64,000 bases of DNA from an uncultured Muribaculaceae bacterium (lineage in GTDB: Bacteria > Bacillota_I > Bacilli_A > RF39 > UBA660): positions 10,529-74,528 of the forward strand of contig CAYNHT010000003.1 in the NCBI GenBank assembly GCA_964397485.1. The letters are read 5' to 3'. This document shows positions 1,562 to 57,292 of this stretch, one piece after another. The first letter of the stretch is position 1, and every line of letters begins with the position of its first letter. Below the pieces are notes generated by a model. That model was not told the origin of the DNA. It saw only the letters and a list, made by a program, of their open reading frames with translations, and did not search any database. The position numbers and the translations under genes were made by a program.

Positions 1562-1644
1562 GACAGTTTTTTACATAGTTGTTTGATTATAAAACTAATG
1601 TGTGGTATTATTTTCTTAAGATATATACGAAAGGTAGTGTAGTG

Positions 1645-9098: not shown

Positions 9099-9135
9099 AT
9101 TTTGTTTTAATTTTAAATTGTTAATATATGTAAAA

Positions 9136-9168
9136 AAGATAAAAAACATTGATTTTATCTTTTTTTTT
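9136..9168 (+). terminator. Terminator (AAGATAAAA-8 nt-TTTTATCTT + T7)
   Basis: 9-bp perfect stem followed by a T-run. Confidence 0.55.
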
Positions 9169-9216
9169 AGTTCATTATAAGATATACTATTAGTAAGGAA
9201 TAAAGGGTGTGATAAT

Positions 9217-10833: not shown

Positions 10834-10888
10834 TGTAAAATAGTGTTTATAATATAGATTTTGTGGGAAATTATGGTATAATAATTAA

Positions 10889-11572: not shown

Positions 11573-11579
11573 GAGGTGT

Positions 11580-14500: not shown

Positions 14501-14684
14501 TAAACAAGCTGCATATAACCGTGGTGGTTATGCTGATTTTGAGTTAAATTGTGGTACTGGAACTGGTCGTGAATGTAAGAGTTATTTTATAAGAGATGTA
14601 TTTAGTAAATATTTTATTTCTAATAGATGTGGAATGAGTAGCAACTGGAACGCTTGCCTTAATTCCGATAAGAGTAAGGGGTGA
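11580..14684 (+). CDS. Giant secreted Cys-rich protein (1034 aa, about three dozen Cys), candidate pilus tip adhesin/effector
   Basis: Signal peptide ...VGSVSA|ETN. Cys-rich repeats (NKLPECCALPQNKNKLPECCGLEENKNKPEC). No LPXTG motif and no C-terminal TM. It is the first gene of the Tad-like operon. Confidence 0.5.
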   Translation: MFVKIKLHKLIMLVIGICVIGSVGSVSAETNIGGGGNAVTNPCSTSRPATCYNAKLGTGSGDSLVQGVRVSVVDKYGNRIPGTTSIDYVQNSGHANQISTSPYLKFFQSGKYTKNEILAGKASGASASGRYAVTHLGELPTFMNIGPNTVIEDYLKAKKVNRDYTKLKQLFMDPIGYDPKKFPANDVKTHSLLFEPLTFMRVTKYPVSGSPTITNYFGTVTEVSKMMVEDGTILWTGYFGKMLPLAIYVRDYKDPITGATQTNRAGLQSISAWVAANKSDYSTEILTSNGTAAGHFWVSELIEEEKDPCEVNPNKLPECCALPQNKNKLPECCGLEENKNKPECNPDLCTFTLDLSCPGDCDESTTGYIKDIEDWQCIFGSRTATDANIRDHFYKWGNRYCSMFCRESLTYEFPNGNMTVSAGSHFTIGDTWYYPNWGPVHFTGRSECRTTSDTGSIRWDLFEKDWAPANDTVKSRWDTYQIAIKQDAAVSSSSSSGKLDCNWTCDRYHPTYPCGTAEKPSTCGGGCAAGSYKSTTMYPASASYDGKNITPGSWCSNSRPNFDVPGKRSSYLSAVNARDTLESNLRQCNDWERGYEEFEPVIGSQYEEAVYGGHYYNLSKVLERRTQTHYFINGNSTPSIDTYKRTRSDYRYVCNTTGVPCVKGPSVGGSLMVYPTNDWIRQFTTKEYDYTLPASVYRYVLKPSGESVNQKPGAGENYVDLGYSNLPIHYSRATGSYDIFLQYTSLGPNHNFNKFIFEGAELNVNYGESLSIYTWLFENNLTWMIADCGEGGHHLSHYFGAPLIAAGRLNEFLDSGCAKQYGCKLLETRSPYRVSCPGDIVDSRHGGSSSNYKRLMQCIAEKRIVTASSEECDTKYDCKYNVRNSLMDNPNDPTLNPQGIDVVYRTISLTNPFPGKNGNGRTPGSNWNSSSLIKQYITNNRNLSNPERIYFDREPMYEINLTPVVIKEIRTHNRKQAAYNRGGYADFELNCGTGTGRECKSYFIRDVFSKYFISNRCGMSSNWNACLNSDKSKG

Positions 14685-15107: not shown

Positions 15108-15947
15108 ATGAATAATATTATTATTTCAATCAAAAGATTTTTTAAAAACAAGAATACTGTTACAGTTGTTGGGATAATTGCAATAATTGGTATATTATAT
15201 TGGGGATATAATTACCAAATTAATAGACAAGTAAATCCAGTTAGAAATATTCCAATAGCAAAAACGACAATCCAACCTAGAACATTAATTACGGAGGAAA
15301 TGATTGACTATGTTGATATTGCTCCAATTGTGCTAAGACAAAATACTGTCACTTCTTCTAGATTAGTTGTTGGGAAATATACTGACTACAATACAGTTAT
15401 CCCAGAAGGAAGTTTATTTTATAAGAATGTTTTAGTAGATAAAGATGAACTACCAGATGCAGCTTTTGTTAAGGTAAAAGAAGGAGATGTTGTATATAAC
15501 TTCCCGGTTAATATGGATACTACTTATGGTAACTCTATTTTCCCAGGAAATAAAATTGACATCTATATGAAAGCAGAAAATGCAGGAAGACAAATTATGG
15601 TTGGGAAATTAATTGAGAATGTTGAGGTTATCGCTGTTAAAGATAGTAGTGGATTACATGTATTTGAAAATACGGAAGAAAGAAGAATTCCATCTACATT
15701 GATCTTTGGTGTAACTCCAGAAATTAATATCTTATTAAGAAAAGCAAGTTATATGAAATCATTTGCTGTTGAATTATTCCCAGTTCCTCATGGTGGGACA
15801 ATTGTAAACCAAGGTGAAATACAAGTTACTTCACAAAGTTTAAAAGATTTCATTAATGCTAATACTGTTCCTAATGATGATATTGTAGCTCCAATTGATG
15901 AAGACCCTATTATCGATGAAGAAAATAATGACGATATCGTAGGTTAG
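15108..15947 (+). CDS. CpaB/RcpC-like Flp pilus assembly protein (N-terminal TM + SAF-like domain)
   Basis: Single N-terminal TM, then a 'V..A..I..G..I..E.I..V.I.P......LVVGKY....I.EG' pattern typical of the CpaB SAF domain. Sits directly upstream of the CpaF-like ATPase. Confidence 0.45.
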   Translation: MNNIIISIKRFFKNKNTVTVVGIIAIIGILYWGYNYQINRQVNPVRNIPIAKTTIQPRTLITEEMIDYVDIAPIVLRQNTVTSSRLVVGKYTDYNTVIPEGSLFYKNVLVDKDELPDAAFVKVKEGDVVYNFPVNMDTTYGNSIFPGNKIDIYMKAENAGRQIMVGKLIENVEVIAVKDSSGLHVFENTEERRIPSTLIFGVTPEINILLRKASYMKSFAVELFPVPHGGTIVNQGEIQVTSQSLKDFINANTVPNDDIVAPIDEDPIIDEENNDDIVG

Positions 15948-15958
15948 GAGGAAAAATT

Positions 15959-17125
15959 ATGCATGATAATATATTTGCCCAGATAGACTTCGGTGCTTTA
16001 AACGAGTATATTCAAAATGATGACGTAACCGATGTTTCATATAGTAATGGTGGGCAAGTATGGTTAAAAACCTTATCAAAAGGTATATATAGAGTAGATA
16101 ATCCTGCAATCAATAATGCTTTTATGGAAAAACTAGCCTTTCAGTGTGCTAACGTTATGGGAAAGACATTTAATATGGCTCATCCTTTCTTAGATGCTGA
16201 AAGCGCTGAACTCCGTTTGAACTTTGTGCATGATTCAGTAGCACGTAATGGTGTTGCGGTAGTTATCCGTAAGACACCAGCTAAAATACGTCTTGAAAAA
16301 GAAAAAATTATTGAAGATAAGTATATTACTTTAAGTATTCATGATTTTTTAGTTAAGTGCATTGAGGGTCACTGTAATGTTATTGTTTGCGGTGAGACTG
16401 GTTCTGGTAAAACAGAATTTGTAAAATATTTAGCCTCTAAAACTAAAGAAAATGAAAAAATTATCACAATAGAAGATACTCTGGAACTTCACCTTGATAG
16501 AATTTTCCCGCATCGTGATATAGTTGCAATGAAAACTAATAATATCGCATCATATTCAGATGTGTTAGTCACATGTATGCGTCAAAATCCTAAATGGATA
16601 TTACTATCTGAGGTACGTAGTGCGGAGGCTGTTATGGCTGTTCGAAACTCAATATCATCAGGACATTACATTTTATCTACAATCCATGCTGATAAAGCAG
16701 CATCAATACCTAACCGTATGTACAGTCTATTAGAAACAAATCAAGATATTGAACAGTTCTTGAAATCTATTTACAGATACATACAACTAGGTATTTATGT
16801 TAGAGGATATCAAGATAAAGTTAGTAAACGTTTCATTCGTGAAATAGCAGAAGTGACAGAATTTTATGTAACACCTGATAATGAGGCTAAGTACAATACA
16901 ATCTATAGAAAGATGGCTGATGGAAGAGTTATCCAAAAGCGTCCTAGTGATTATTTATTCGATTATTTAGAAATACAAGGTGTTATGTTAGATAAGAATA
17001 TTATTCAACCAAGTGAAGATAAAGAAGATACTGAAATTACAGGTGAAGATATAAATACTGTGGTTGAACCAACGAATACTAATAGTGGTATTTTCGAAGA
17101 AAAAGTTGAAGTATTGTTTGAATAA
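15959..17125 (+). CDS. CpaF/TadA (VirB11-superfamily) secretion ATPase
   Basis: Walker A (GETGSGKTE), Asp box (TIEDTLEL), 'RQNPKWILLSEVRSAEA' (RxxPDxIxxGExR) and a His box (STIHA). Confidence 0.8.
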   Translation: MHDNIFAQIDFGALNEYIQNDDVTDVSYSNGGQVWLKTLSKGIYRVDNPAINNAFMEKLAFQCANVMGKTFNMAHPFLDAESAELRLNFVHDSVARNGVAVVIRKTPAKIRLEKEKIIEDKYITLSIHDFLVKCIEGHCNVIVCGETGSGKTEFVKYLASKTKENEKIITIEDTLELHLDRIFPHRDIVAMKTNNIASYSDVLVTCMRQNPKWILLSEVRSAEAVMAVRNSISSGHYILSTIHADKAASIPNRMYSLLETNQDIEQFLKSIYRYIQLGIYVRGYQDKVSKRFIREIAEVTEFYVTPDNEAKYNTIYRKMADGRVIQKRPSDYLFDYLEIQGVMLDKNIIQPSEDKEDTEITGEDINTVVEPTNTNSGIFEEKVEVLFE

Positions 17126-17137
17126 AGGAGGGATATA

Positions 17138-18043
17138 ATGAGTAGTGGTGTTATTTTTATAGTTATTTCTTTTATAGTTGTTTTTATTATAGCTTATAGA
17201 AAAAATACTGGTGAGAATGTCTATAAATATATAGTTAGGCAAGTTGGAACTGCCTATGATAAATATGCCCCTTTTTCATTTAAAGTAGTTAGAGAAAAGG
17301 TAAAAGATTTAGGTCAGGAGTATACTCCTAGACAATATGCGATTCAAATTACAATTTTTGCGTTAGGATCATTAATTATATCCTATATGTATTTCTATAG
17401 TTTGGTTATATCGCTAATGTATATGACTATATCTATAACAATAATTCCTTATTTAACATACTTAAGATGTAAGAGACTATATAGTGAGTTTATTTTTGAA
17501 CAAATTCAAGTATACACAACTAACGTAATTATGGAATTTGCAACAACTCAATCATTTGTTAAATCATTAGAGGGTGTTTACGAATCTGGGGTTTTAGAAG
17601 ACCCAGTAAAAAAAGATGTAAAAGCCATGATTGATTTGGCATATGAAAACGGTACTATATATGCATCTTTAGATCATATGGATAAAAATTACAATTTTTA
17701 TATAGTAAAGAACATGCATCAATTATTTTTACAAATAACTAATGAAGGTTCTAAAGATGCTGGTGCATCTTTAGAAAATATGTCTCTTGATATAGATATG
17801 TTAGTTGAAAGTGTGTATAGAGATAGATTAGACCGTTCATCATTCCATAAAAAGTTTTTACAATTTGGTATCGTTTTATACTTAATGGTAATGTTAGTAC
17901 AGTTTTTATTAGGTGTAGAAACCTATATAAAAATGCTTGATAACGTTCTTGTTCAGTTGTTACTGCACTTAATTGTCCTTGTTAATACATTATTTTTGTT
18001 AAATGGGGAAAAATATTACAATGAGAATGTGGGGGCGGAATAA
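17138..18043 (+). CDS. TadB-like platform membrane protein (T2SS-F-like topology)
   Basis: N-terminal TM, a cytoplasmic domain and C-terminal TM pair. Lies immediately downstream of the secretion ATPase, with a 4-bp overlap to the next gene. Confidence 0.45.
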   Translation: MSSGVIFIVISFIVVFIIAYRKNTGENVYKYIVRQVGTAYDKYAPFSFKVVREKVKDLGQEYTPRQYAIQITIFALGSLIISYMYFYSLVISLMYMTISITIIPYLTYLRCKRLYSEFIFEQIQVYTTNVIMEFATTQSFVKSLEGVYESGVLEDPVKKDVKAMIDLAYENGTIYASLDHMDKNYNFYIVKNMHQLFLQITNEGSKDAGASLENMSLDIDMLVESVYRDRLDRSSFHKKFLQFGIVLYLMVMLVQFLLGVETYIKMLDNVLVQLLLHLIVLVNTLFLLNGEKYYNENVGAE

Positions 18044-18825
18044 TGGAATTTATATTTATTGCGATAATAATACTATATATATTAGAAATTAATCGACAAG
18101 TAGATACAAAAAAATTCATTGATGATACCGAACCATATTTTCGCTTTTTAATGGAAGATGACTATAAGTTTTTATTGATGCTAAGATATGGGTCTGATGT
18201 TGATGTAAATAAATTATATACAATTAGAGTAAGAAATGGGTTAGTTGCAATTATATTTATGATTTTTGTCTTTATGACTAACCTAAATTTCATTAATGTA
18301 ATATTTGCTTTTATTGTTGGATTTATTATGTTTAAATTACCATATAATAAATTGCGCAATTTTTACAAAGCAAATCTTCATCAAATTAATTTAATGTTGC
18401 CTTATTATTTGAAGAGTTTAGAAATTTTAATTCAACATTATACAGTTCCAGTAGCGCTTGGGCGTTCAATTGAAACTGCACCAGACATATTCAAACCAGG
18501 TTTAAGAAAATTAATTGCTAAAATAGAATCTGGGGATCCAACGGTTGATCCATATATGGATTTTGCGAAAGAATACCCAGTTAGGGATTCAATGCGTATG
18601 ATGAGATTGTTATATCGACTTGGTCTTGGATCGCAAGAAAATAAGCAAGATCAATTGATGATGTTTTCTAGAACTGTGTCGGCACTTCAAAGTAAATCTA
18701 GGGAACAAAAATATCGTGATCGTCTCGATAAAATGGAAAATCAAACTATGTTAATGTTGGGGGTAACTGGTGGCGGAATAATGTTACTGATGTTACTGTC
18801 AATGATGATGATGATGCAATTTTAA
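18043..18825 (+). CDS. TadC-like platform membrane protein
   Basis: Same topology class as the previous gene. Second of the characteristic TadB/TadC pair. Confidence 0.45.
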   Translation: MEFIFIAIIILYILEINRQVDTKKFIDDTEPYFRFLMEDDYKFLLMLRYGSDVDVNKLYTIRVRNGLVAIIFMIFVFMTNLNFINVIFAFIVGFIMFKLPYNKLRNFYKANLHQINLMLPYYLKSLEILIQHYTVPVALGRSIETAPDIFKPGLRKLIAKIESGDPTVDPYMDFAKEYPVRDSMRMMRLLYRLGLGSQENKQDQLMMFSRTVSALQSKSREQKYRDRLDKMENQTMLMLGVTGGGIMLLMLLSMMMMMQF

Positions 18826-18892
18826 TGCTTGTTAATATTAGGCTTTTATGCTATAATTAATGTGTTGATAACGAAAGTAAGGTGGTGATAGA

Positions 18893-19084
18893 ATGAAAGA
18901 AGCGGCAGGGGAAGCAAACTTAACAGTAGTAGCTATTATTCTAATCGGGGTAATCGCGGCTGTTGTAACACCTATTGTCACAAACATGATGAATACTACT
19001 CAAAAAAGATCATGCTGTTTAAATAACGGTGGAACTTGGGTAAATGGTAAATGTCAAGGAGCTAGTGATGTTTGTCCTAGTTAA
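18893..19084 (+). CDS. Flp-like small pilin (63 aa) with a 4-Cys C-terminal knot
   Basis: MKEAAG|EANLTVVAIILIGVIAAVVTPIV: short leader ending in Gly, then a hydrophobic helix. C-terminus RSCCLNNGGTWVNGKCQGASDVCPS. Size and position match a Flp pilin. Confidence 0.5.
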   Translation: MKEAAGEANLTVVAIILIGVIAAVVTPIVTNMMNTTQKRSCCLNNGGTWVNGKCQGASDVCPS

Positions 19085-19104
19085 TTAATAAGAGGTGTTG
19101 ACTT

Positions 19105-19524
19105 ATGAGGGAAGGTATAGGAAGTGTCTTTTTATACAATATAATTATTACTTTTATAATAATAGTATTCGCTTTTTTGGCTGGAACTCTTAGTTATACT
19201 AAAGCCTTTAAAGTAAATACTAAAATAGTTAGTGCTATTGAAAAGTATGAGGGATATAATAATTTATCTAACAACGAGATAAATAAAGCGTTGCAAACTT
19301 TAGGTTATAGAATTAGTACAAATAATACTTGCCCCAAAAGGGATGGCAAGAGTGCCATGACTAATTTATCTAATAACTATAAGTATTGCGTATATGAATT
19401 TTCTGAAGGAAAAGGATATCGTACTTATGGAGTTGTAAGTTATATTTCTATTGATATTCCGATTATAGGTGGTTTATTACAAATACCTATATATTCAAGA
19501 ACAATAAAAATGTATAATTTTTAG
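19105..19524 (+). CDS. TadE/TadF-like pseudopilin, paralog 1
   Basis: MREGIG leader, hydrophobic helix, a conserved Cys pair (TCPKRDG...YKYCVY) and a C-terminal 'D(I/V)PIIG..(I/F)PIY' block shared with paralog 2. Confidence 0.45.
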   Translation: MREGIGSVFLYNIIITFIIIVFAFLAGTLSYTKAFKVNTKIVSAIEKYEGYNNLSNNEINKALQTLGYRISTNNTCPKRDGKSAMTNLSNNYKYCVYEFSEGKGYRTYGVVSYISIDIPIIGGLLQIPIYSRTIKMYNF

Positions 19525-19537
19525 AAGGTGAAGATAT

Positions 19538-19969
19538 ATGAGAGAATCAGTTGGTAATACGTTTATATTTAATACAATTATTATATTTGTTTCGATATTA
19601 ATTGCTTTATTAGTTGGTTCTCTTAGCTATTCAAAAGCTTTTAAAGTAAAAAACCGAATTGTATCAATAATTGAAAAGCATGAAGAATATAATTCAAGTG
19701 CTAGAAATGAAATTGAGGCTGCATTAGCAAGTATTGGTTATCGTGTCAATCCTAATGGCACACAATCGTGCCCTAATAGGGAAGGTGCGTCAGCTATTAA
19801 TACAACTAATAGTAACTACCGTTATTGTGTGTATCTGTATGATACAGGTACCTACGGTAAAGGGAGATATTATGGAGTTGCTGCTTATATGCACTTTGAT
19901 GTTCCGATTATTGGACAATTTATTGAGTTTCCCATTTATGGAGAAACCAGAATCATTTACGTTATATAG
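19538..19969 (+). CDS. TadE/TadF-like pseudopilin, paralog 2
   Basis: MRESVG leader. Colinear with 19105..19524, including the Cys pair (SCPNREG...YRYCVY). Confidence 0.45.
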   Translation: MRESVGNTFIFNTIIIFVSILIALLVGSLSYSKAFKVKNRIVSIIEKHEEYNSSARNEIEAALASIGYRVNPNGTQSCPNREGASAINTTNSNYRYCVYLYDTGTYGKGRYYGVAAYMHFDVPIIGQFIEFPIYGETRIIYVI

Positions 19970-19986
19970 TTTGGGAAGGTGAAAAG

Positions 19987-20985
19987 ATGAATGTAATAGT
20001 TTCTAATAAATATCAGTCAATGCTTCAAAGTTTAAATATTGACATAATTAAAAATCAATCAGGTGAATTTGAAGTAGAGGAATTGATTTCAACTTTCCAA
20101 AACTTTTATTATCAAAGAATGATTTTAGATATTACAGCAATCAAAAATTATAAAGATGTTAAGACTTTGCAAAAATTGTCTATTTCTTTGGACATGGATA
20201 AAATAATTTTATTATTAGATGATTCTGCAGAAAGTACATCATCAGACTATTTATCAAAACTAATTTCAATGGGAATTTATAATTTTACTAGAAATATAGA
20301 GGGTATAATGTATTTATATCATAATCCAAATAGTTATCGTGATGTTGCTCACATTCATCAATTAGATAATTTTAACGATGAAGATAAAACTCAATTTGTT
20401 ATTAATGTTACTAACAACGGTGTTCGTATCGTTGGGGTGAAAAATGTTACTAAACAATCTGGGGCTACATCTTTAATCTACATGATGAAAAAGCAATTAG
20501 AACGAAATTATTCTGTGGTTGCACTTGAAGTTGATAAAAGGGATTTTATGTACTTTAAGGATAAAGAAATGCTTAGTGTTGTAAATGCCGAAGTAGGTAA
20601 TACAATTGCTAAACACAGTGATTGTGATATTATTTTAATTGATATAAATAATAGTGTGTCAGCAGAAGGTTTGTGTCATGACATTATCTATTTAATTGAA
20701 CCATCAGTTATAAAGCTTAACAAACTTATGATGCTTGATGGTAAAATATTGGAAAGACTAAAAAATAAGAAAGTTATTTTAAATCAAAGTATGCTAAGCT
20801 CTAAAGATGTGTTAGACTTTGAATATGAATCAAGAATTAAAGTTTTCTACAATATGCCACCTTTGGATGAGAGGGAAAAGGAAATTCATATTTTAAATGT
20901 GTTTTTAACAAGATTAGGGTTCGATCGTCAAAAGAGTGAAGAAACTGAGAAAAAAAATAAACTTTTAGGTTTATTCAACATATAA
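19987..20985 (+). CDS. TadZ/CpaE-like protein (receiver-like N-domain + degenerate ParA/MinD-like domain)
   Basis: Position in the locus, and 'GVKNVTKQSGATSLIYMM' where MinD/ParA proteins carry GKGGVGKTT. The Walker A is degenerate, as in many TadZ proteins. Confidence 0.3.
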   Translation: MNVIVSNKYQSMLQSLNIDIIKNQSGEFEVEELISTFQNFYYQRMILDITAIKNYKDVKTLQKLSISLDMDKIILLLDDSAESTSSDYLSKLISMGIYNFTRNIEGIMYLYHNPNSYRDVAHIHQLDNFNDEDKTQFVINVTNNGVRIVGVKNVTKQSGATSLIYMMKKQLERNYSVVALEVDKRDFMYFKDKEMLSVVNAEVGNTIAKHSDCDIILIDINNSVSAEGLCHDIIYLIEPSVIKLNKLMMLDGKILERLKNKKVILNQSMLSSKDVLDFEYESRIKVFYNMPPLDEREKEIHILNVFLTRLGFDRQKSEETEKKNKLLGLFNI

Positions 20986-20988
20986 TCG

Positions 20989-21017
20989 TTGACAAAAGAT
21001 GGAAAATGACGTATTAT
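20989..21017 (+). promoter_or_regulatory. Consensus sigma-A promoter (TTGACA-17 bp-TATTAT) at the Tad-module/T4SS-module boundary
   Basis: -35 at 20989-20994 and -10 at 21012-21017, 26 bp upstream of the 21043 start. Confidence 0.55.
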
Positions 21018-21042
21018 ATTTGGTAATAAGGGAGGTAATTTT

Positions 21043-21372
21043 ATGTTTATATTAGCGACAACAGTTCAATGTGGTGGATACAATGTACCCGTTCCAATTA
21101 TTAACATAGTTCATACAATTGTTGAACTTATTAAAATTGGTGTTCCTATTTTATTAGTTATCTTTGGTATGCTTGATTTAGGAAAAGCTGTTATGGCTCA
21201 AAAAGAGGATGAAATCAAAAAAGGACAACAAACTTTTATTAAGAGATTAATCGCAGCTGCAATTGTTTTCTTTGTAATCGTAATTGTGCAGTTAGTATTC
21301 AATTTAGCTAGCGGCGGAGATGAAGCAAACATCTGGAGTTGTGTAGAAAAATTCGTTGTAACTGGTGCTTAA
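21043..21372 (+). CDS. VirB2/TrbC-like conjugative pilin candidate (two hydrophobic helices separated by a charged loop)
   Basis: IGVPILLVIFGMLDLGKAV...FIKRLIAAAIVFFVIVIVQLVF. The same ~60-aa module forms the C-terminus of 21456..23054. Followed by a hairpin and T-run. Confidence 0.4.
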   Translation: MFILATTVQCGGYNVPVPIINIVHTIVELIKIGVPILLVIFGMLDLGKAVMAQKEDEIKKGQQTFIKRLIAAAIVFFVIVIVQLVFNLASGGDEANIWSCVEKFVVTGA

Positions 21373-21380: not shown

Positions 21381-21416
21381 AAAACAATTAATATCTATTT
21401 ATTATTGTTTTTTTTT
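21381..21416 (+). terminator. Terminator/attenuator after the small pilin-like gene (AAAACAAT-15 nt-ATTGTTTT + T6)
   Basis: 8-bp stem, a large loop and a T-run. Followed by an extended -10 (TGTTATAAT). Confidence 0.4.
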
Positions 21417-21455
21417 ATGTTATAATGTAGGTGGTTAATTATCGACATAGGAGTT

Positions 21456-23054
21456 GTGAATATGAAATTAAATAAATATATTATTTCGTTTGTTTTATTA
21501 GGAATATTTTTTTTAGGTGGCATAAATGGTGTTAAAGCGGAAGTAGATGCAGTTAGTGGTGCTGCCCCAATAGCAGAAAACGCTTTTTATGCTAGTACTA
21601 AGTGTTGGTATGAACGTAGTAACGGTAAACAAGCTGTTATTGAAAGAAAATATACGGCTAATGGTATTGTTAACACTGTTACTAGATATAAGAAAGATGG
21701 GAGTCTTGATGACACCAAAGATAGAACTATTGCCTTTACTGGTTTTTGGTATGTTTATAACAATACTACTGAGTGTCCAAAATCAGTTGATATAAAAGGT
21801 GGGGGATTGTTTAGTGCTGATCAAATATATCCTTTTGATTACGAAACTGAATATGTACTATATAAACAAGAAGCTACGGGAGAAAACTTATTAAATAAAT
21901 TGCCTACTTGTGAGTATCAGTCAAATGTTTCTCAATATAAGGGAGAAGAATTTAAATTAATTCATACCCCAGTTTTTGAGGACTATAAAACACATTATAG
22001 TGAAATTTATGTTAAAATTCTGACATTTAAAGTTAGTGTTCAAAAGACAATCTTGCAAGATGGTGATTTTGTATGGATAGATGAAACTAGTACCCCTTTA
22101 TTGGGTGATAAAAATCAGTACACTACTACATGTCCAACATACGCACATTATAATCCACCAGGGAGTATACACGAGTATGTTCTGACAAGTTCTTTTGATA
22201 AACCAAAAGGATGGAAAGAAGATTATATTTTAGAGAGATATGTTGATTTTTCTAGTCAAGAAGCAGCAATGGATAAAATTCATGATGATTTCAAAAAAAT
22301 TGACGATGACATATATTATGATTTATCTGATTGTTTTGATTCGCTTACAATAAATGCTTCAACCTGTGATACGGTTAATTTAAAAAGCGGGTGTTTAACT
22401 TTAGATAAGTTAAAAAGTCTTGATCAAAAATTGGTAAGTGCTTATAACGATGCAATGGCAAAGATAAGGGCGATTAAATTAGATGGTGATTATACAGTTA
22501 AAGATATAGAGGAAGGTAATATAAGTTCTTCTATATACAAAGGTATATCACAAAAATATGCTACTATTATAGAATCGATCAAGAAAAAATTTAGCCTTAG
22601 TAGTGAAATGATAAGTTGTGCATACTTGAAATTAGAAAATGACACAACTCTTACCGAAGAAGAAAAAGAAGAAATAACTACAGCAAGAGCAGAATCGGAA
22701 GAAGAAAGAAGCGTAATAATAAAAGAACTATCGAGAATTGATGGTAATTTTAACGTTGATCCAGGTGAATATGATTGTAGTGTTATATTAGATGATGCGA
22801 TGATAGAATGGATAGAAGCTGCATTTTTATTCATCCAAATAGGTGCTGCAGTTGTGGTTGCTGTTATGGGAATGTTAGATTTTTCTAGAGCAGCCGTGTC
22901 AAATGATGCCGATGCGATGAAGAAGGCTTGGCAAAAATTCATTAAGAGGTTGCTGGCTTTACTTATATTATTATTGTTACCATTTATTATTCAATTTTTA
23001 TTGGGATTGATTGAAATTCCAGGTTTAACTAATACAGACCCATTATGCAAATAG
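21456..23054 (+). CDS. Secreted ~450-aa domain fused to a C-terminal VirB2-like two-helix membrane module
   Basis: Signal peptide (GGINGVKA). C-terminus IGAAVVVAVMGMLDFSRAAV...FIKRLLALLILLLLPFIIQFLLGL aligns with 21043..21372. Confidence 0.45.
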   Translation: MNMKLNKYIISFVLLGIFFLGGINGVKAEVDAVSGAAPIAENAFYASTKCWYERSNGKQAVIERKYTANGIVNTVTRYKKDGSLDDTKDRTIAFTGFWYVYNNTTECPKSVDIKGGGLFSADQIYPFDYETEYVLYKQEATGENLLNKLPTCEYQSNVSQYKGEEFKLIHTPVFEDYKTHYSEIYVKILTFKVSVQKTILQDGDFVWIDETSTPLLGDKNQYTTTCPTYAHYNPPGSIHEYVLTSSFDKPKGWKEDYILERYVDFSSQEAAMDKIHDDFKKIDDDIYYDLSDCFDSLTINASTCDTVNLKSGCLTLDKLKSLDQKLVSAYNDAMAKIRAIKLDGDYTVKDIEEGNISSSIYKGISQKYATIIESIKKKFSLSSEMISCAYLKLENDTTLTEEEKEEITTARAESEEERSVIIKELSRIDGNFNVDPGEYDCSVILDDAMIEWIEAAFLFIQIGAAVVVAVMGMLDFSRAAVSNDADAMKKAWQKFIKRLLALLILLLLPFIIQFLLGLIEIPGLTNTDPLCK

Positions 23055-23069: not shown

Positions 23070-24914
23070 ATGGATTGGTTAGAGAGTATTGTTAGATTCC
23101 TATTTGCATGGATAGACAAGATTATTGCTTGGGTAATAGAACAAGCATATTCTCTTTTTATACTAATATCTGATACTAATATCTTCAATCAACAAGTTTT
23201 AGAGATGTTTAGTAGGAGAGTATATGCCTTACTTGCAATATTTATGTTATTTAAATTAGCGTTTTCGCTAATTAATTATATTATAAATCCTGATGATTTT
23301 ACTGATAAAAGTAAGGGGGCAGCTAAGCTCATAACAAATGTTTTTATTGTGTTAGGACTTATTGTTACCGTACCTTACATGTTTAAATTAGCTTATGATT
23401 TTCAAGGGTTAGTGGTAAAAAATAGTGTCATTCAAAAAGTTGTGTTAGGTGTTGGTGGCGCTAGTGTTAAGGATGACCAAACGCCTGGGAAAATTATGGC
23501 ATTTACTGTGTATAGTGCGTTTGTTACACCAAATCCAAATTATCCAGGTATGGATGATAAGTGTGATGAATTATATTCAAAGCGTGAGGTTAGTCCTGAT
23601 TGTGAAGATATTGTAAGATCAGCTGCTGGGCCGAATGGACCATTAATTTTGAAAAATGCAGTTGATGCATATGATAGTCAATCTCTATTAAATTATGATT
23701 TAATAGTTAACGCGAAAACGAACAAACAATTTTTATTTAATTATACACCTATTATATCTAGTATATGTGCTGGTATAGTAGCATGGATAATTTTGATTTT
23801 CTGTATTGATATAGCAATTCGTGTTGTAAAACTTGGGTTCTTACAACTTATTGCTCCGATACCTATCATTTCATATGTAGATCCAAAAAGTTCAAAAGAG
23901 GGGATGTTTAAAAAATGGACTAAAATATGTTTCTCAACATATGCAGATTTATTTGTCCGTTTGATTGCAATCTCATTTGCGATTTTCATTATAAACATAA
24001 TAGGAACCGGAGAAATAACTAAGATTAGTAAACCTGATGAAGTTATTAGTTTTACTACACATCCATTTGTTAAGATTTTCATTCTCTTAGGAGCATTAAT
24101 GTTTGCTAAGCAAATACCGAAATTAATTGAAGATTTAACTGGTGTTAAAATGGGTGATAGTTTCACTTTAAATCCTATGAAAAAAGTAGGAGCATCACCA
24201 TTTGCTGCTGCCGCATTAGGTGGTGTTGGTGGTCTTGTAGGTGGTGGACTTGCTAATGCTTATGCTGCTGGTAGTAATATGAGAAAGACTATTGGTGAAA
24301 AAGGATTACGAGATGCATTTACTGGAGGGAAAACTGGTGTTAGAGGATTCATGCATGGTGCTGGAACAGTTTTTGGTGGAGCCGGTACAGTTATTGCTGG
24401 TGGTGCAAGTGGTATGTTTAGAGGTGGCGGAGCCGCAGCTAAAGATAAAAATGTTGGCGGAGGTATTGTCAAAGGGATTAAGGGTTCTGTTGACGCTCGT
24501 GATATACGTGATGCAAGGCAAGAAGCAGACTATGGTATAGCAACTAGAGGAATGGATACTATTAGAGGAATGGCTGGTGTAGATACGCAAGCTAAGGAAA
24601 GAGCAAATGAAATAAAAGGTAAGATAACTAACTTACAAAGACAACAAGCTCAATATGATAGTATTGCCGAAAATATTGCTGTTACAAACAATTATACTCC
24701 TGAGAAAATTACTCAACTTTCTCAAGCATCAAGACAAGAGTTGCCTGGAGGAGTTGTTCAATACCGTGATGCTGCTGGTGCAACGATTACAGATGCTAAC
24801 GAGATTAAATACTTAGAAGCAGTTACACGTTCTAGCAAAACAAGTGTTGAAATTATTAAAACTAATAAAAAGTTAAAGATTTATGAAGCTGAAAACAATA
24901 AAAAGACAAGTTAA
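23070..24914 (+). CDS. VirB6/TrbL-like polytopic channel protein (TcpH/Orf15-like) with Gly-rich C-terminal region
   Basis: At least 6 TMs in the first 400 aa, then a Gly/Ala-rich low-complexity tract (GGVGGLVGGGLANAYAAG...GGGAAAKD). Lies upstream of VirB3/VirB4. Confidence 0.55.
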   Translation: MDWLESIVRFLFAWIDKIIAWVIEQAYSLFILISDTNIFNQQVLEMFSRRVYALLAIFMLFKLAFSLINYIINPDDFTDKSKGAAKLITNVFIVLGLIVTVPYMFKLAYDFQGLVVKNSVIQKVVLGVGGASVKDDQTPGKIMAFTVYSAFVTPNPNYPGMDDKCDELYSKREVSPDCEDIVRSAAGPNGPLILKNAVDAYDSQSLLNYDLIVNAKTNKQFLFNYTPIISSICAGIVAWIILIFCIDIAIRVVKLGFLQLIAPIPIISYVDPKSSKEGMFKKWTKICFSTYADLFVRLIAISFAIFIINIIGTGEITKISKPDEVISFTTHPFVKIFILLGALMFAKQIPKLIEDLTGVKMGDSFTLNPMKKVGASPFAAAALGGVGGLVGGGLANAYAAGSNMRKTIGEKGLRDAFTGGKTGVRGFMHGAGTVFGGAGTVIAGGASGMFRGGGAAAKDKNVGGGIVKGIKGSVDARDIRDARQEADYGIATRGMDTIRGMAGVDTQAKERANEIKGKITNLQRQQAQYDSIAENIAVTNNYTPEKITQLSQASRQELPGGVVQYRDAAGATITDANEIKYLEAVTRSSKTSVEIIKTNKKLKIYEAENNKKTS

Positions 24915-24935: not shown

Positions 24936-25256
24936 GTGAATAATCAATTTTTGATACCTGCGAATTCTAAAAGGTCAATTTTATATTTTGGTCTATTTAA
25001 CAAATTTGATTTAGCACTATTTTCTTCAGGATTAGTGGTGACGTTAATACTATTATTAATAGTCCCACTAAACAACTTAGCAATTACAATTATGGCAATA
25101 TTGCCAGGCTTTATTAGTGGATTTTTGGTCATGCCAGTACCAAACTATCATAATGTACTGACGATACTAAAAAGTGCAATTGGATTTTATACTAGCAGGC
25201 AAAAATATGTGTGGAAGGGTTGGTGTTTCCTAAGTGGCAAAGAAAACGAAAAGTAA
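24936..25256 (+). CDS. VirB3-like small membrane protein (PrgI/Orf17-like)
   Basis: ~100 aa with two TMs, immediately preceding and overlapping the VirB4 gene, the canonical arrangement. Confidence 0.5.
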   Translation: MNNQFLIPANSKRSILYFGLFNKFDLALFSSGLVVTLILLLIVPLNNLAITIMAILPGFISGFLVMPVPNYHNVLTILKSAIGFYTSRQKYVWKGWCFLSGKENEK

Positions 25257-25779
25257 GTATACTAATGATGATATCCCGGTTAAAAGTATTACAAATGGGA
25301 TGATTATATTAGATAATAATTTTAAAGTTACGGGTGTTAAAATAATGCCTCGTAACATATTTATTCTAGATCAAGATATGCAAAACAGTATAATCGCAAA
25401 TTTAAAAAACGTTTATAACATAATTGATTATGAATTTTGGATAATGGCGGCTGATAGACCAGTTGATATTAATGTCTATTTGTCTCAGCTACAATTGCTG
25501 TATAACTCAGTAACTAGTCAAGCAAAGAGAAAATTAATCATGGAGGATATTAACAAAGCAAATATGTTTATGAACAACAATGTTGTTGATACAGAATATT
25601 ATCTTTTATTCAAGGAAAAAGATAATGAGTTAATTCAAAAACGAATTAGGGTATTGATTAATTCGTTCGCTAGTGCAGGTCTTTCTTCACATCAAGTTAC
25701 TAATGATGATTTAAGAATGATTTTAGATAACTTCTTAAATGGTGGACAAACAACTGATTTTGGGACGGTGATTGGATAA
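25234..25779 (+). CDS. VirB4-family ATPase, N-terminal domain (separate ORF)
   Basis: Colinear with VirB4/TcpF/PrgJ N-domains. Ends in TAA overlapping the next ATG (ATAATGG); the continuation is in another frame. Confidence 0.55.
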   Translation: MAKKTKSKYTNDDIPVKSITNGMIILDNNFKVTGVKIMPRNIFILDQDMQNSIIANLKNVYNIIDYEFWIMAADRPVDINVYLSQLQLLYNSVTSQAKRKLIMEDINKANMFMNNNVVDTEYYLLFKEKDNELIQKRIRVLINSFASAGLSSHQVTNDDLRMILDNFLNGGQTTDFGTVIG

Positions 25780-27563
25780 TGGATATAAAGAGTCAAATTG
25801 CGCCTAAGGGTCTAGAGTTTAGATCAGCTGATTTTATTATCAGTGATAAACACGCAACAATTTTATCAGTTATCTCTTACCCTAAATTTATTAGTCCTGG
25901 ATATTTAGCTTCATTGACAAGTATGTCAGGAATAAAAGTTGTTATAAAACATATTCCGCTACCTTTTAGTGTTATAACAAAGATGTTGAATAAAGAAATT
26001 GCTGATTTAAAGCAACGTTATCAAGAAGAAAATGATAAAACAATTCAAGAAAGAATAAGACAAGATTATGAATCGTTAGAGTATTTTATTACTCAATTGG
26101 CAGCTAGCCAATCTAAAATTTATGATTTTCAAATGCATGTAATGGTTACTGCTGATTCTGCAGATCAATTGATTAGTAAGAAGTTACAGGTTAAAAATTA
26201 TTTAGAAGCAATGGAATTGCGCGCATTTCCATTACGTTTTGAACAAGAAAAAGTACTTAAATCTATTATTCCGATATATCCTTCACAGGATGTAGAAAGT
26301 AGAATAGGAACACCGATACCTGCACCAACTATTGCAGCAATGTATCCATTTATCTTTGATAGTATTAAAGATCCTGGATTATCTACATTGTTAGGAGTAG
26401 ATTTTTCAGGAGGGGTTATTCTTTTTAATCAATTCTTATATCAAATTCGTAAAGAGCATAACCGAAATAATGCAAATATGATTATTTTAGGAACATCTGG
26501 TAGTGGTAAATCTACTGCTGCTAAAATGATGTTAAGAACAAATATTAGAAATAATAATCAACTTGTAGTTATCGATCCCGAGGGAGAACTTGAGGAAATG
26601 TCTCGTTTATATGGTGGAGACTTTATTGATCTAGGTAAAGGTGGAGAATATGGGATGATAAACCCATTGGAGGTCGTTCTAGATTTCGATGAAGAGGAAG
26701 CAAAACAAGGCCTTGGTTACACTGTATTAACTAGAACTTTGCAAACGATAAAGGCATTCTTGAAATATTACGATCCAAAGGTAGAAGAAGATGTTATTAC
26801 TTTATTTAGTGAAGTAGTTCAGGATACATATCGTCGTTTCGGAATGGATTTCAATACAGATTACTCAAAATTCACTTCAAAAGATTATCCTACATTTAAA
26901 GATGTGTATGCTACTATTAGGGGTAGACTATTATCAATGCCTGAACAAAGTCACGAAAAATCTGTAATGGAGAAGTTAGAATTAAAAATTAGACCAATTG
27001 TAAAAGAATTAAAATATTATTTCGATGGTCATACAACTATCTCTCCACAAAGTGAATTTATAGTTTTTAATATAAGAGAATTAATGAATGCTGATATGAA
27101 CATCAGAAATGCATTGTTCTTTAATATTTTAAAATATGCATGGGGATTAACGTTAAATAAAGCAATTAATACAATATTAATGGTTGATGAAGCTCATGTA
27201 CTATTGAGTGGTAATAATACATTAGGAGCTGATTTCTTAGCTCAAGTTCAAAGACGTTCGAGAAAATATAATACTGGAACAATAATTATTACGCAACAAC
27301 CAAGTGACTTCTCTGATCCTAGTGTTATTACACAAGGAAAAGCAATTTTTGACAATGCATCTTATTACCTAGTTATGGGATTAAAGAAGCAGGCTGTTGA
27401 AGATTTATCGAAGTTAATTGATTTAAATGATAATGAAAAAGAAAGTATTAAGAGATATAACCAAGGTGAAGCACTATTTGTTTGTGGAAGCCGCAGAATG
27501 CGAATTAATGTAATTGCTACTGAGCAAGAACTTGATTCATTTGGAAGCGGTGGGGGATTCTAA
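25779..27563 (+). CDS. VirB4-family ATPase, core/ATPase part
   Basis: Walker A (GTSGSGKST), 'VIDPEGE' and Walker B (MVDEAHVLL). The combined 181+594 aa is the size of a VirB4. Confidence 0.8.
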   Translation: MDIKSQIAPKGLEFRSADFIISDKHATILSVISYPKFISPGYLASLTSMSGIKVVIKHIPLPFSVITKMLNKEIADLKQRYQEENDKTIQERIRQDYESLEYFITQLAASQSKIYDFQMHVMVTADSADQLISKKLQVKNYLEAMELRAFPLRFEQEKVLKSIIPIYPSQDVESRIGTPIPAPTIAAMYPFIFDSIKDPGLSTLLGVDFSGGVILFNQFLYQIRKEHNRNNANMIILGTSGSGKSTAAKMMLRTNIRNNNQLVVIDPEGELEEMSRLYGGDFIDLGKGGEYGMINPLEVVLDFDEEEAKQGLGYTVLTRTLQTIKAFLKYYDPKVEEDVITLFSEVVQDTYRRFGMDFNTDYSKFTSKDYPTFKDVYATIRGRLLSMPEQSHEKSVMEKLELKIRPIVKELKYYFDGHTTISPQSEFIVFNIRELMNADMNIRNALFFNILKYAWGLTLNKAINTILMVDEAHVLLSGNNTLGADFLAQVQRRSRKYNTGTIIITQQPSDFSDPSVITQGKAIFDNASYYLVMGLKKQAVEDLSKLIDLNDNEKESIKRYNQGEALFVCGSRRMRINVIATEQELDSFGSGGGF

Positions 27564-27577: not shown

Positions 27578-29881
27578 TTGGTGGTGAGTAAAATGGATAA
27601 CGAGAATAACAAGCAGGAACAATCAGGATTGCAAAAAGCTGCAGGCAAGGTTCAAAATGTGAAGAATATGGTTGACAAAGTTAAAAAAATCAAGGCTTTG
27701 ATGCCTATAATTTCTCTTCTTGCGCCAATTCTAGCTAAAATTGCTATTGCTATTCTAATTATTATTTTAGTCATGATACCAATTATGTATATACAAGACA
27801 AAATTGAAAATATAGCTATTGGTTTAGATAAATTTATAAATTTTATTACATTGAATGGATGGGAAGAAAGTGATCAAGTATTCTTTAAAAAATTGCAAAA
27901 TGAATACGATCGATTTGATAGTTTCCCTAGGAAGCAAGGCGAATTTGATATTCCTTTAATAGCTTCAACAATTCATTACAGTACGCTAGTTACTCCAGAC
28001 ACATATTCATATAATGAATCTGATAAAAACAGTTCTTATCAATATAATAATACTGATCCTATGATTCCAGGTAATCAAATTAGAAATTTCTATATTGTTG
28101 CTAATGATAAATTAGGTAGTGCGTTTACTTTAATACCAGGTGAAAAAAAATTAATCGGTCATCTAATAGATACAAAATTCACTACAAAATGTGTTAATGT
28201 TCCACAAGGTTGGGCTGCTCTTAATCCTTTTGAATGGGGAGATGCATATGATGCAGCAAAAGAACTTGTCGAAAGTTTATTCTTACATTTTAAGTATGGA
28301 GTTGAAGACACTGGCAAAGTATATTTTACGAGATTAAACTTACTTAAAGTTATTCAATTACTTTATAGTTATAATGCTGTAGGTGAGAATAAATGGATTG
28401 CTGATATAGAAAACTTAAAACATGAGGTTATAAATGATAATTTTGCTCAGGATTTAATAAGAATTATTAAGCAATCAGAGATGGCAAATACATGTGGCGA
28501 AGGACAAGTTCCAATGCCGATGATCACAAAATTTATTAACTATGAATATTATAAAGATTACTTAAGAGGAACAACTATATTAGGGGTCCAACAACCGGGA
28601 TATTTGGGAATTCAATCTTTTGCTGTATGTGATAGATGTGAATATAAAAATGCAACAGCTGAAGAGAAGAAATTCTTAAAAGAAGTATGGATAAATGAAA
28701 TATTCGATCAGAAAGATGCATATAACTACTTGCAAGGTACAAGGTCTAGAAATCAATTAACTGAGTACCTGCCAGGGATGTCCACATTGCCAATTCAGGT
28801 TGGCGCTGGGGAGAGTTGGAAAACAAATGTTACACGAGGTTTTGCATTAGGAACAGCCAAGTGCTTTAAAAATGGTGTTTGGACTGGAGAAACTACATGT
28901 AACCACTTAGGGATAGATTTTGGTTATCCAACCGGAACTCCTGTTACAGCCGTAGCTAATGGTTATGTAATAGAGGCATCATATAATAGTGGCGGATATG
29001 GACTATATGTAAAATTAGGACATGACGTTGATGGTGATAATCGATATGATTATTATAGTTTATATGCCCATTTATCTGTTATAAATGTTGCTGAAAATTC
29101 GATGGTTGGTGGCGGACAAAAAATAGGTGAAGTTGGATCTACTGGAAATTCATCGGGTCCCCATTTACATTTTGAAATTATGGATGATAAAGGTACTAGA
29201 ATAGATCCTGAACCTATTTTAAATGGTATTGCAACCGGTGCAGGTAATCCTTTAAATCCATTATCTGGATCGATGACATGTGGCATGTTTACTGACTCTC
29301 AATTAAAAGATCGTAATGATGCCTTAGCTCAAAAAGTTAAGGATGCAGGTCTTGGTACTAGAGAGGGAGTTGTAGCGGCTGCTCGATACTTATCAACTGA
29401 ACTGGGTGTTATTATTCCATATTGGTATGGAGGAAAACACACTCAAAAAGGTTTAAGTAGTGAGTGGGGTTGCGGTAAGGCAATAACAGCTGACCCAGCT
29501 ACTACGCAACAACCAACTGGAACAACACACCCGTATGGAATGGATTGTAGTGGTTTTGTTTCTTGGTCTGTAAGAAATGGTGGTTATAAGGCTAGTACCA
29601 TTCCAGCTGGATCTACAAATCAAGGTAATTTCACTGATGATAAGATTCCATGGGGAACTGAAAGTATTAGTTATGCTAAACCAGGAGACTTGGCATGGAA
29701 TTCATCTCATATCGGCGTTATTATAGCCGTTGATAGTGCAAAATGCAAGTACTATGTAGCTGAAGAAAGAGGAGCTGAATATGGTTTGGTAGTCACTGAA
29801 AATGACTGTACTAGTAGAAGATATACTCATATTGTCTTAATGGACGACTATTATAATAATAGTAATAATAAGGAGGGCTAA
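27578..29881 (+). CDS. Membrane-anchored bifunctional cell-wall hydrolase: M23 (LytM) peptidase + CHAP/NlpC-P60 domain (VirB1 functional analog, PrgK/TcpG-like)
   Basis: N-terminal TM. M23 motifs (HLGIDFGYP...LYAHLS...GSTGNSSGPHLHFEI). C-terminal Cys-His domain (DCSGFVSW...SHIGVII). Confidence 0.75.
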   Translation: MVVSKMDNENNKQEQSGLQKAAGKVQNVKNMVDKVKKIKALMPIISLLAPILAKIAIAILIIILVMIPIMYIQDKIENIAIGLDKFINFITLNGWEESDQVFFKKLQNEYDRFDSFPRKQGEFDIPLIASTIHYSTLVTPDTYSYNESDKNSSYQYNNTDPMIPGNQIRNFYIVANDKLGSAFTLIPGEKKLIGHLIDTKFTTKCVNVPQGWAALNPFEWGDAYDAAKELVESLFLHFKYGVEDTGKVYFTRLNLLKVIQLLYSYNAVGENKWIADIENLKHEVINDNFAQDLIRIIKQSEMANTCGEGQVPMPMITKFINYEYYKDYLRGTTILGVQQPGYLGIQSFAVCDRCEYKNATAEEKKFLKEVWINEIFDQKDAYNYLQGTRSRNQLTEYLPGMSTLPIQVGAGESWKTNVTRGFALGTAKCFKNGVWTGETTCNHLGIDFGYPTGTPVTAVANGYVIEASYNSGGYGLYVKLGHDVDGDNRYDYYSLYAHLSVINVAENSMVGGGQKIGEVGSTGNSSGPHLHFEIMDDKGTRIDPEPILNGIATGAGNPLNPLSGSMTCGMFTDSQLKDRNDALAQKVKDAGLGTREGVVAAARYLSTELGVIIPYWYGGKHTQKGLSSEWGCGKAITADPATTQQPTGTTHPYGMDCSGFVSWSVRNGGYKASTIPAGSTNQGNFTDDKIPWGTESISYAKPGDLAWNSSHIGVIIAVDSAKCKYYVAEERGAEYGLVVTENDCTSRRYTHIVLMDDYYNNSNNKEG

Positions 29882-55922: not shown

Positions 55923-55957
55923 AAAAAAATGAATTTAAATAAATTCATCTTTTTTTA
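55923..55957. terminator. Bidirectional terminator (A7-ATGAATTT-aaat-AAATTCAT-T7) between convergent genes
   Basis: Perfect 8-bp stem flanked by A- and T-runs. Confidence 0.6.
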
Positions 55958-57031: not shown

Positions 57032-57063
57032 GATTTCTTTTTGAATAATTTATCCCCACCTTT

Positions 57064-57276: not shown

Positions 57277-57292
57277 CTGGCTTCATCCTTCC

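Follow-up and report, generated by a model that had tools for sequence, protein, structure and literature searches.

Type IV secretion systems (T4SSs) of Gram-positive bacteria were described in a review of December 2025 as lacking VirB2 and VirB5, with Patescibacteria as the exception (PMC12857230), and a preprint of the same month argued that VirB2-like pili are widespread in Gram-positive T4SSs and found no tip protein (ter Beek et al., bioRxiv 10.64898/2025.12.18.695078). In the latter work PrgF (pCF10, Enterococcus faecalis), an essential VirB2-like protein, was modelled as a pilus on a PrgH pentamer, and VirB2-type pilins have both termini on the outside of the tube, as also known from established structures; the accompanying survey covered candidates of 50–150 amino acids (aa) on PLSDB plasmids and found no VirB5-like protein (bioRxiv 10.64898/2025.12.18.695078). 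For Patescibacteria, the part of the literature covered here describes arrays of 2–11 VirB2-like pilin genes (PMC12102498; reviewed in PMC12857230). The present analysis concerns two adjacent genes in a 64,000-nt stretch of contig CAYNHT010000003.1 from an uncultured bacterium (hereafter the window, meaning the whole stretch). The first (21043–21372, + strand) encodes a small protein of 109 aa with two helices, which may be a major subunit of VirB2-like type, and the second a cysteine-rich protein of 530 aa with a signal peptide, a large outer domain and a C-terminal module that resembles the small protein (21462–23054, + strand).

Like PrgF and the other Gram-positive VirB2-like candidates, the small protein is a hairpin whose two helices are joined by a short charged loop in the cytoplasm, and its gene lies upstream of a VirB6-like gene. 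The order of genes in the window (small protein, 530-aa protein, VirB6-like, VirB3-like, split VirB4, hydrolase and, further on, VirD4) is collinear with prgF (VirB2-like)–prgG–prgH (VirB6)–prgI–prgJ–prgK of pCF10. Unlike PrgF, with which there is no sequence similarity, the window family has a flanking pair of cysteines and a longer basic loop, and unlike the 50–150-aa candidates of the survey, the large protein carries an outer domain of ~410 aa. What is new is a VirB2-like pilin module with large variable outer domains, which constitutes a large uncharacterised family. We propose, with a probability of roughly 45%, that the 530-aa protein serves a Gram-positive T4SS as a minor pilin, most likely at the tip or in the first layer; its family may supply the tip or minor subunit so far missing from the conjugation pili of Gram-positive bacteria.

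Homology and domain layout of the two proteins

The large open reading frame (ORF) was confirmed and could begin at GTG 21456 or at ATG 21462. The latter is preferred on the strength of public gene calls and of a ribosome-binding site (AGGAG, 21450–21454) seven nt ahead of it, giving 530 instead of 532 aa. BLASTP with composition-based statistics returned a single significant segment between the two proteins, pairing residues 29–88 of the small with 459–518 of the large one (22 of 60 identical, 37%; E=7e-10). Their Smith–Waterman score was 114, compared with 33 ± 6.5 for shuffles in which the small protein was permuted within 10-residue blocks so that its layout of transmembrane (TM) segments and loop was kept (z=12.5; 0 of 2000 shuffles reached 114), and the next-best ORF of the whole window scored 48. 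Profile–profile comparison (hhalign) of 38 small-protein homologues with nine C-terminal modules yielded a probability of 99.5% (E=7e-23, 87 columns), the alignment also pairing the cysteine N-terminal of TM1. The plan common to the small protein and the C-terminus of the large one is Cys, TM1, a basic loop of the form GMLDxxKA...KKxxxxFIKR, TM2, Cys. The likeness is therefore one of real homology rather than of generic TM composition, and the C-terminus of the large protein is a true paralogue of the small two-helix protein encoded upstream. The sequence-only reading, made from the letters of the window, had let the C-terminal ~70 aa align with the full 109-aa protein; the kinship stood up to the pairwise and profile comparisons, whereas the alignable part is a core (residues ~7–94 of the small protein) matched by ~90 residues of the large one.

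Both regions are rich in TM segments, by which naive similarity is inflated, and a sceptic might put the likeness of the two hydrophobic hairpins down to chance or composition, or the fusion down to a read-through artefact. To this alternative we assign a vanishingly small probability, given the composition-corrected E-value, the z-score against layout-preserving shuffles and the profile probability quoted above, and given that loop motif and flanking cysteines are conserved. Read-through was ruled out by the ORF being uninterrupted in nine full-length orthologues of 39–100% identity, found among 5.8 billion clustered proteins, and by hundreds of analogous fusions. An exhaustive HMMER search contributed P0133 as the sole additional representative of the full-length protein.

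The small protein is built from an N-terminal tail with Cys10, TM1, the loop GMLDLGKAVMAQKEDEIKKGQQTFIKR, TM2 and a tail with Cys100. It has more than 2000 homologues of 104–135 aa at ~60% identity, from uncultured Bacilli and from gut metagenome-assembled genomes labelled Mollicutes and Tenericutes; within the family the loop is nearly invariant, and Cys10 and Cys100, each on the outer side of its helix, are invariant. Structure prediction with AlphaFold2 (AF2) gave helices 17–52, 58–89 and 94–107 at a predicted local distance difference test score (pLDDT) of 76. In related loci a cysteine stands both before TM1 and after TM2 in all 199 of 199 modules. This pair (Cys439/Cys529 in the large protein) probably forms a disulfide by which the outer ends of the hairpin are linked. 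VirB2/TrbC pilins are cyclised head to tail, and the presumed disulfide would be a functional analogue of that cyclisation, the ends being joined in both cases.

In the large protein, a Sec-type signal peptide (aa 1–26, 21462–21539, + strand; MKLNKYIISFVLLGIFFLGGINGVKA|EV, cleaved after GVKA, with a Kyte–Doolittle hydrophobic segment at 3–28) is followed by a beta-rich outer region (aa ~40–262, 21579–22247, + strand) with two C-x-Y...C-P units (C48/C105 and C150/C224), by a helical stalk (aa ~263–432, 22248–22757, + strand) with long helices at 264–289, 314–336, 357–392 and 399–430, and by the pilin-like module (aa 437–530, 22770–23054, + strand). The latter comprises Cys439, TM1 (~446–472), the loop DFSRAAVSNDADAMKKAWQKFIKR, which is basic (6 K/R versus 3 D/E), TM2 (~497–520) and a tail of about 10 residues, PGLTNTDPLCK, that holds Cys529. 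Hydropathy analysis revealed exactly three hydrophobic segments, one in the signal peptide and one in each helix of the hairpin. From these segments and the basic loop, the outer domain is expected on the outside, the loop in the cytoplasm and the short C-terminal tail outside again, a topology that agrees with the one presumed in the sequence-only reading; the extracellular domain of ~450 aa assumed there shrinks to ~410 aa for the mature outer part. The AF2 model of the large protein (overall pLDDT 71) shows beta strands between 45 and 260 (pLDDT mostly 70–90), a well-predicted helical stalk (264–430, pLDDT 80–96) and terminal hairpin helices at 445–479 and 485–516 (pLDDT 63–75).

Ten cysteines are invariant in the large protein and its orthologues (48, 105, 150, 224, 291, 302, 311, 386, 439 and 529). 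Mean pairwise identity amounts to 73% in the module (81% in the loop) versus 54% in the outer part, and among the close relatives P0004–P0008 the module is 98% identical, with 83–85% in the beta domains and locally 66%. Conservation thus falls from module to stalk to beta domains, the last being the fastest-evolving part of the protein. The stalk is also commoner across the family than the beta domains, as many alignments of the exhaustive search run from about query residue 270–380 to the C-terminus. For the outer part no match was obtained in Pfam, NCBIfam, PDB sequences, Foldseek-PDB or BFVD; the best Foldseek hit in the PDB had E=0.04 and a TM-score below 0.2, and a PDB profile search remained empty. 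The ectodomain, consisting of two beta domains and the helical stalk, resembles no known fold or family.

A modular family with interchangeable outer domains

A search of species-representative genomes with the small family as query confirmed 402 matches, from which 79 distinct loci were retained; together with three loci from exact protein look-up, all six-frame ORFs of these 82 non-redundant loci were surveyed for the module by hmmsearch. The survey detected 217 module ORFs, every one of them in a T4SS neighbourhood. More than one such ORF was present in 68 of the 82 loci, in tandem arrays of up to six, and 36 loci contained a module ORF of at least 250 aa. The module lies nearly always at the extreme C-terminus, with a median of 8 residues after it, and a signal-peptide-like N-terminus precedes the outer part in 54 of 59 module proteins of at least 160 aa. 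Wherever a VirB6-like gene could be recognised (70 loci), the ORF directly upstream of it contains the module; 29 of these 70 ORFs are at least 250 aa long, and 26 of the 29 follow a small copy, as in the window. Some loci have small copies only, and the extended forms are therefore accessory rather than core subunits.

An exhaustive profile search of 1.84 billion representatives found 5121 matches at E<=1e-3 (1093 at E<=1e-10), the best 150 of the 5121 being mostly 200–628 aa in length with the module at the extreme C-terminus. The outer domain of the window protein, in contrast to its module, was found in three representatives only. Clustering of 60 outer domains by BLAST gave 25 clusters, and the window's domain matched only two orthologues; across the family the sizes of outer domains range from ~20 to ~790 aa. 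By jackhmmer, too, the window ectodomain retrieved only these two orthologues from among 60 family ectodomains, the sole wider link being short C-x-Y...C-P motifs. A C-x-[YF] motif follows right after the signal peptide in 51 of 60 outer domains of related loci (96 of 115 large family members start with it), and a C-P occurs 50–100 residues further on in 48 of the 60, a pattern which suggests that the outer domains have a small N-terminal unit in common. A Pfam scan of 125 large family members identified no recurrent outer-domain family and returned only one SLT/Phage_lysozyme2 and two DUF1542 matches. The Phage_lysozyme2 match comes from one member, presumably P0146 itself, a protein of 293 aa retrieved in the exhaustive search, in which an SLT lytic transglycosylase domain (EQESSF...AYGLMQI) is fused to the C-terminal pilin-like module. 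Judged by its domains, P0146 would represent a VirB1-type activity on a VirB2-like anchor.

An instructive case is locus L003 (2261–5763), where extended forms fill the two places upstream of the VirB6-like gene. At the small position stands a 288-aa protein composed of a signal peptide, a ~190-aa domain, an Asn/Pro-rich linker and the module; at the large position stands the 873-aa protein P0010, which has the same module, an outer part unrelated to that of the window protein and extra hydrophobic segments at ~640–700. Outer domains are interchangeable on a conserved module, and the window protein is one member of a large modular family, not a singular fusion. That such heads can be exchanged, and that they include a wall-degrading enzyme, argues for the module being a general display or delivery device. 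In databases the architecture for which the sequence-only reading had no precedent in Gram-positive T4SSs proved recurrent, comprising thousands of proteins that have hypervariable outer domains and stand in arrays of as many as six in a locus; a full-text literature search on PF18895, T4SS_pilin and VirB2-like fusions, with incomplete coverage of the literature, brought up no paper describing it.

Several described systems come close in one respect or another. Bartonella Trw loci contain multiple variable copies of VirB2 and VirB5, proposed to diversify target binding (PMC12857230), and resemble the present family in having several sequence-variable, surface-exposed T4SS pilus components in one locus; there, however, pilin and tip protein are separate and small, whereas in the present family it is the domains fused to the pilin-like module that vary. 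The Patescibacteria arrays are comparable in that divergent pilin-like genes stand in tandem beside a monoderm-type T4SS on the chromosome with no relaxase recognised, four ORFs of the window cluster being unassigned, and in that PF18895 is the best-matching curated family; module genes number two in the window and up to six in related loci. The differences are that the window proteins score under the Pfam threshold, that the host organisms are gut bacteria of Bacilli type with low GC, including one spore former, and that the Patescibacteria genes, in the part of the two accounts covered here, are described as VirB2-like pilin genes with large N-terminal domains unmentioned (PMC12102498; PMC12857230), whereas many proteins of the present family carry outer domains of 100–790 aa.

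Display on a pilus versus anchoring in the membrane

The label "VirB2-like" has real but indirect support, which comes from apparent remote homology at the family level, from position and from topology rather than from structure. The pattern of Pfam matches in the family is both consistent and specific. PF18895 (T4SS_pilin) is matched by 33 of 38 small homologues at E<=1 (best 3.7e-5), which makes it the most frequent Pfam match of the family; it is the top Pfam family for nine of nine C-terminal modules (best E=4.8e-5), is matched by 43 of 115 large family members (best E=3.6e-8) and appears as a precomputed annotation on one small homologue (P0111). In the window itself, PF18895 aligned to the small protein with E=0.1 over profile positions 8–71 of 71 and to the module of the large protein with E=0.0099 over positions 15–71. 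One large family member matches DUF4134, which we take to be a conjugative TraE-type family of Bacteroides. The 109-aa protein falls within the operational definition of a VirB2-like protein (50–150 aa when mature, two TM helices, short charged cytoplasmic loop) that derives from ter Beek et al. and from structures of F, T and R388 pili. The large protein has such a hairpin, yet with its 530 aa it lies beyond the 50–150-aa size range and is hence a fusion, not a canonical member. Both genes are close to the virB6-like gene, the large one ending 16 nt and the small one ~1.7 kb upstream of it. The pilin label of the sequence-only reading can thus be retained on the family-wide, sub-threshold PF18895 matches, the VirB6-like adjacency and the collinearity with prgF–prgH, with the reservation that similarity to solved VirB2/TraA/TrbC/TrwL pilins or to PrgF was not detected.

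In the mechanism that we envisage, the large protein would be exported by the Sec pathway and relieved of its signal peptide, whereupon its C-terminal hairpin would enter the membrane. The basic loop would then lie in the cytoplasm, while the ~410-aa outer part, rich in disulfides, and the cysteine-bearing tail would both be outside. Since the hairpin is paralogous to the 109-aa protein and the loop near-identical, it may be recognised by the same VirB6-like platform as the small protein and be built into the same tube or channel. As both ends of a VirB2-type pilin face the exterior of the filament, the N-terminal extension would be displayed outward, with the stalk providing distance and the beta domains making contact with a target cell or its wall, while a disulfide of the conserved cysteine pair would tie the outer ends of the hairpin. 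An outward-projecting stalk and head would be in line with the gradient of conservation along the protein.

What the analysis demonstrates is homology, signals of topology, synteny, modularity across the family and a pattern of conservation, while we infer polymerisation of the small protein, co-assembly of the large one and its site, the disulfide and the adhesive role. Several points weigh against our proposal. The window copies remain under the PF18895 gathering cut-off of 26.6 bits (small protein 13.1, large module 16.4), hhalign found no similarity between the small family and pCF10 PrgF (probability 0.4%), and searches of Pfam, NCBIfam and Foldseek-PDB disclosed no similarity of the large protein to VirB5. 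The hairpin region of the large protein was modelled only moderately by AF2 (pLDDT 63–75), and the hairpin disulfide is deduced from the conserved cysteines. Furthermore, an N-terminal extension of 410 aa might clash sterically with neighbours packed along the shaft, which is the reason why incorporation at the tip, or sparse incorporation, was assumed.

In a different view, the large protein would be a membrane-tethered T4SS accessory whose hairpin docks or anchors at the VirB6-like or VirB4 complex and is never extruded. Its outer part would then act at the donor surface, for example as a wall-spanning scaffold, in wall remodelling or as a channel collar, like the VirB8-like or VirB1-like proteins of other Gram-positive systems, and the small protein would likewise be a static membrane subunit and not a pilin. 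We take this to be the main rival, somewhat less likely than our own proposal. No pilus has been seen on Gram-positive cells expressing a T4SS (bioRxiv 10.64898/2025.12.18.695078; PMC12857230), the SLT lytic transglycosylase of P0146 is a typical membrane-proximal VirB1 activity, and similarity to solved pilins was undetectable: PDB sequence searches with the small-family and large-protein profiles matched none, nor did Foldseek, which is a weak test for hairpins. A further hint at part of an integral membrane protein came from sub-threshold NCBIfam matches between the module and the N-terminal part of VirB6-like proteins of mycoplasma integrative and conjugative elements (ICEs; NF045848/NF045889, E=7.7e-4 for the small and 0.026 for the large protein, far under the cut-offs, with 11 of 38 and 9 of 38 members matching). 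These matches are, however, no stronger than those to the noise families MamI and pyrophosphatase, and PF18895 is the consistent best family. A plain anchor, moreover, would need neither a near-invariant loop common to a small paralogue nor a pair of cysteines on the outer side, and PEG-labelling of PrgF argues that such hairpins do exit the membrane (bioRxiv 10.64898/2025.12.18.695078).

If the large protein is indeed a minor pilin, the nearest functional counterparts would be VirB5/TrwJ/TraC, which it would resemble in its proposed role as a distal, adhesive subunit assembled first on the VirB6 platform, and resembles in combining a helical stalk with a globular part and in the position of its gene between those for the VirB2-like and VirB6-like proteins. 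It differs in that there is no sequence or fold match, and in that VirB5 is a separate subunit of soluble type without a VirB2-like hairpin, whereas the head of the window protein is covalently joined to the pilin fold. Among other pili, two-domain tip or minor pilins are represented by FimH (pilin plus lectin domain), by the type IV minor pilins CofB, TcpB and GspK and by the tip pilins of sortase pili; by general knowledge these share with the window protein the union of a major-subunit polymerisation module with an extra functional domain, but their folds and assembly machineries are unrelated. Were the proposal correct, the family would be a candidate for how Gram-positive T4SS pili contact and penetrate target cells, its members would offer built-in epitopes for visualising an otherwise invisible structure, the pilin fold would have to tolerate N-terminal cargo, which is useful for display engineering, and the outer domains would point to determinants of target specificity in the exchange of genes or material among abundant uncultured gut Bacilli.

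The T4SS cluster and its chromosomal setting

The small gene has a ribosome-binding site GGGAGG at 21030–21035 and, 26 nt upstream, a promoter-like site (TTGACA-17-TATTAT, 11/12, 20989–21017, + strand) that is the best sigma-70-like match of the region; its place ahead of the small gene accords with the minor-pilin proposal. The total of promoter-like sites there is not above that of shuffles, and the site is a consensus match only. The 84-nt gap ahead of the large gene contains an extended -10 element of the TGnTATAAT type (tgttataat, within 21405–21430). A terminator between the two genes, which would suit a ratio of major to minor subunit expression, was looked for and none was found.

Downstream on the + strand follows a VirB6/TrbL-like polytopic protein of 614 aa, the presumed assembly platform (23070–24914; Pfam TrbL_4 E=1.3e-5, NCBIfam Mbov_0396/MMCAP2_0566 E~1e-10, all under the curated cut-offs). 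A 106-aa membrane protein in the VirB3/TcpE position (24936–25256, +) has a weak TcpE match (E=0.047), and its position is kept in related loci. VirB4 is split into an N-domain of 181 aa (25234–25779, +; NCBIfam VirB4_plasma positions 98–276, E=5e-15; PF26593 TraC-like) and an ATPase of 594 aa (25779–27563, +; VirB4_plasma positions 295–891, E=4e-104). The 594/595-aa form recurs in ~60 related loci, and the split is therefore not a frameshift. Next come a cell-wall hydrolase, a VirB1 analogue (27578–29881, +; Peptidase_M23 E=4.6e-27, weak NlpC/P60), and a VirD4/TraG-type coupling protein (31399–33702, +; T4SS-DNA_transf E=8.6e-56). For the VirB6-like protein and VirB4, the best curated matches are mycoplasma ICE families (Mbov_0396/MMCAP2_0566 and Mbov_0397, respectively), all under the cut-offs, which suggests a sister relationship between the T4SS of the window and the conjugation machinery of mycoplasma ICEs.

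Directly upstream of the T4SS genes and co-oriented with them lies a Tad/Flp-type pilus gene set (15108–20985, + strand), in which the roles of unmatched ORFs are assigned from position only. It includes a CpaB/RcpC-like protein (TIGR03177 CpaB E=1.4e-6; RcpC), a TadA-type T2SSE ATPase, two polytopic proteins, a 63-aa Flp-like pilin with four C-terminal cysteines, a 332-aa protein and two paralogous proteins of 139 and 143 aa with an N-terminal hydrophobic segment; the arrangement of Tad before T4SS is repeated in the related loci L001, L002 and L004. Four co-oriented ORFs that head the cluster (8220–14684; 292, 538, 227 and 1034 aa) matched no Pfam or NCBIfam family, and for the 538- and 1034-aa proteins no match was found among PDB sequences either; the 1034-aa gene is kept in related loci (956–1034 aa). 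The entire Tad and T4SS cluster, ~8.2–33.7 kb (8220–33702), is located between scpA (6638)/scpB (7359) and rmuC (34729)/RNase R (rnr, 37722)/smpB (41067), and a gerA operon (55955–60032) and spoIVA (60163) follow further downstream. With these housekeeping flanks and sporulation genes, the window is therefore part of the chromosome of a low-GC spore former. A megablast search of PLSDB plasmids with the 19–30 kb part of the window and tblastn with both proteins found nothing; the T4SS cluster with the module family is absent from the sequenced plasmids of PLSDB, and because of this lack of plasmid homologues the module family fell outside the survey of ter Beek et al.

This setting bears on what the machine transports. 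It might be a non-conjugative T4SS, a relaxase-less chromosomal apparatus as in Patescibacteria that employs pilin-anchored variable heads for attachment to, or exchange with, other bacteria or a host. Pfam and NCBIfam recognised no relaxase, integrase or transposase in the scanned ORFs of the window, the cluster sits amid the housekeeping and sporulation genes just named, arrays of 2–6 divergent module genes resemble the 2–11-gene VirB2 arrays of Patescibacteria, and a Tad pilus cluster is attached. The presence of a VirD4-type coupling protein speaks against this possibility, and any of the four family-less ORFs at 8220–14684 could hide a relaxase. We rate a non-conjugative apparatus as rather unlikely. 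This reading is about what the machine transports, and it could hold together with display of the outer domains on a pilin. A bolder form of the pilin proposal would make the hairpin a universal pilus-insertion tag by which dozens of unrelated, rapidly evolving, disulfide-rich heads, namely adhesins and at least one lytic transglycosylase, are displayed on the Gram-positive T4SS pilus, the equivalent of VirB5 in monoderms, with, in these gut Bacilli, the chromosomal and apparently relaxase-less T4SS-plus-Tad cluster serving cell–cell interaction, as the essential T4SS of Patescibacteria does, rather than classical conjugation; this we consider unlikely, if not by a wide measure.

Two further genes of the window deserve mention. 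A 441-aa protein (48829–50154), adjoining a P-type ATPase (46058–48280), combines a heavy-metal-associated domain with a DsbD_2/CcdA-type membrane domain for thiol–disulfide transfer; it may have a bearing on thiol chemistry outside the cytoplasm, given the many cysteine-rich proteins that the organism exports. Outside the Tad/T4SS cluster, a 575-aa ORF (1579–3306) carries the prokaryotic N-terminal methylation motif PF07963 (E=1.7e-7) and encodes an unusually large type IV pilin-like protein.

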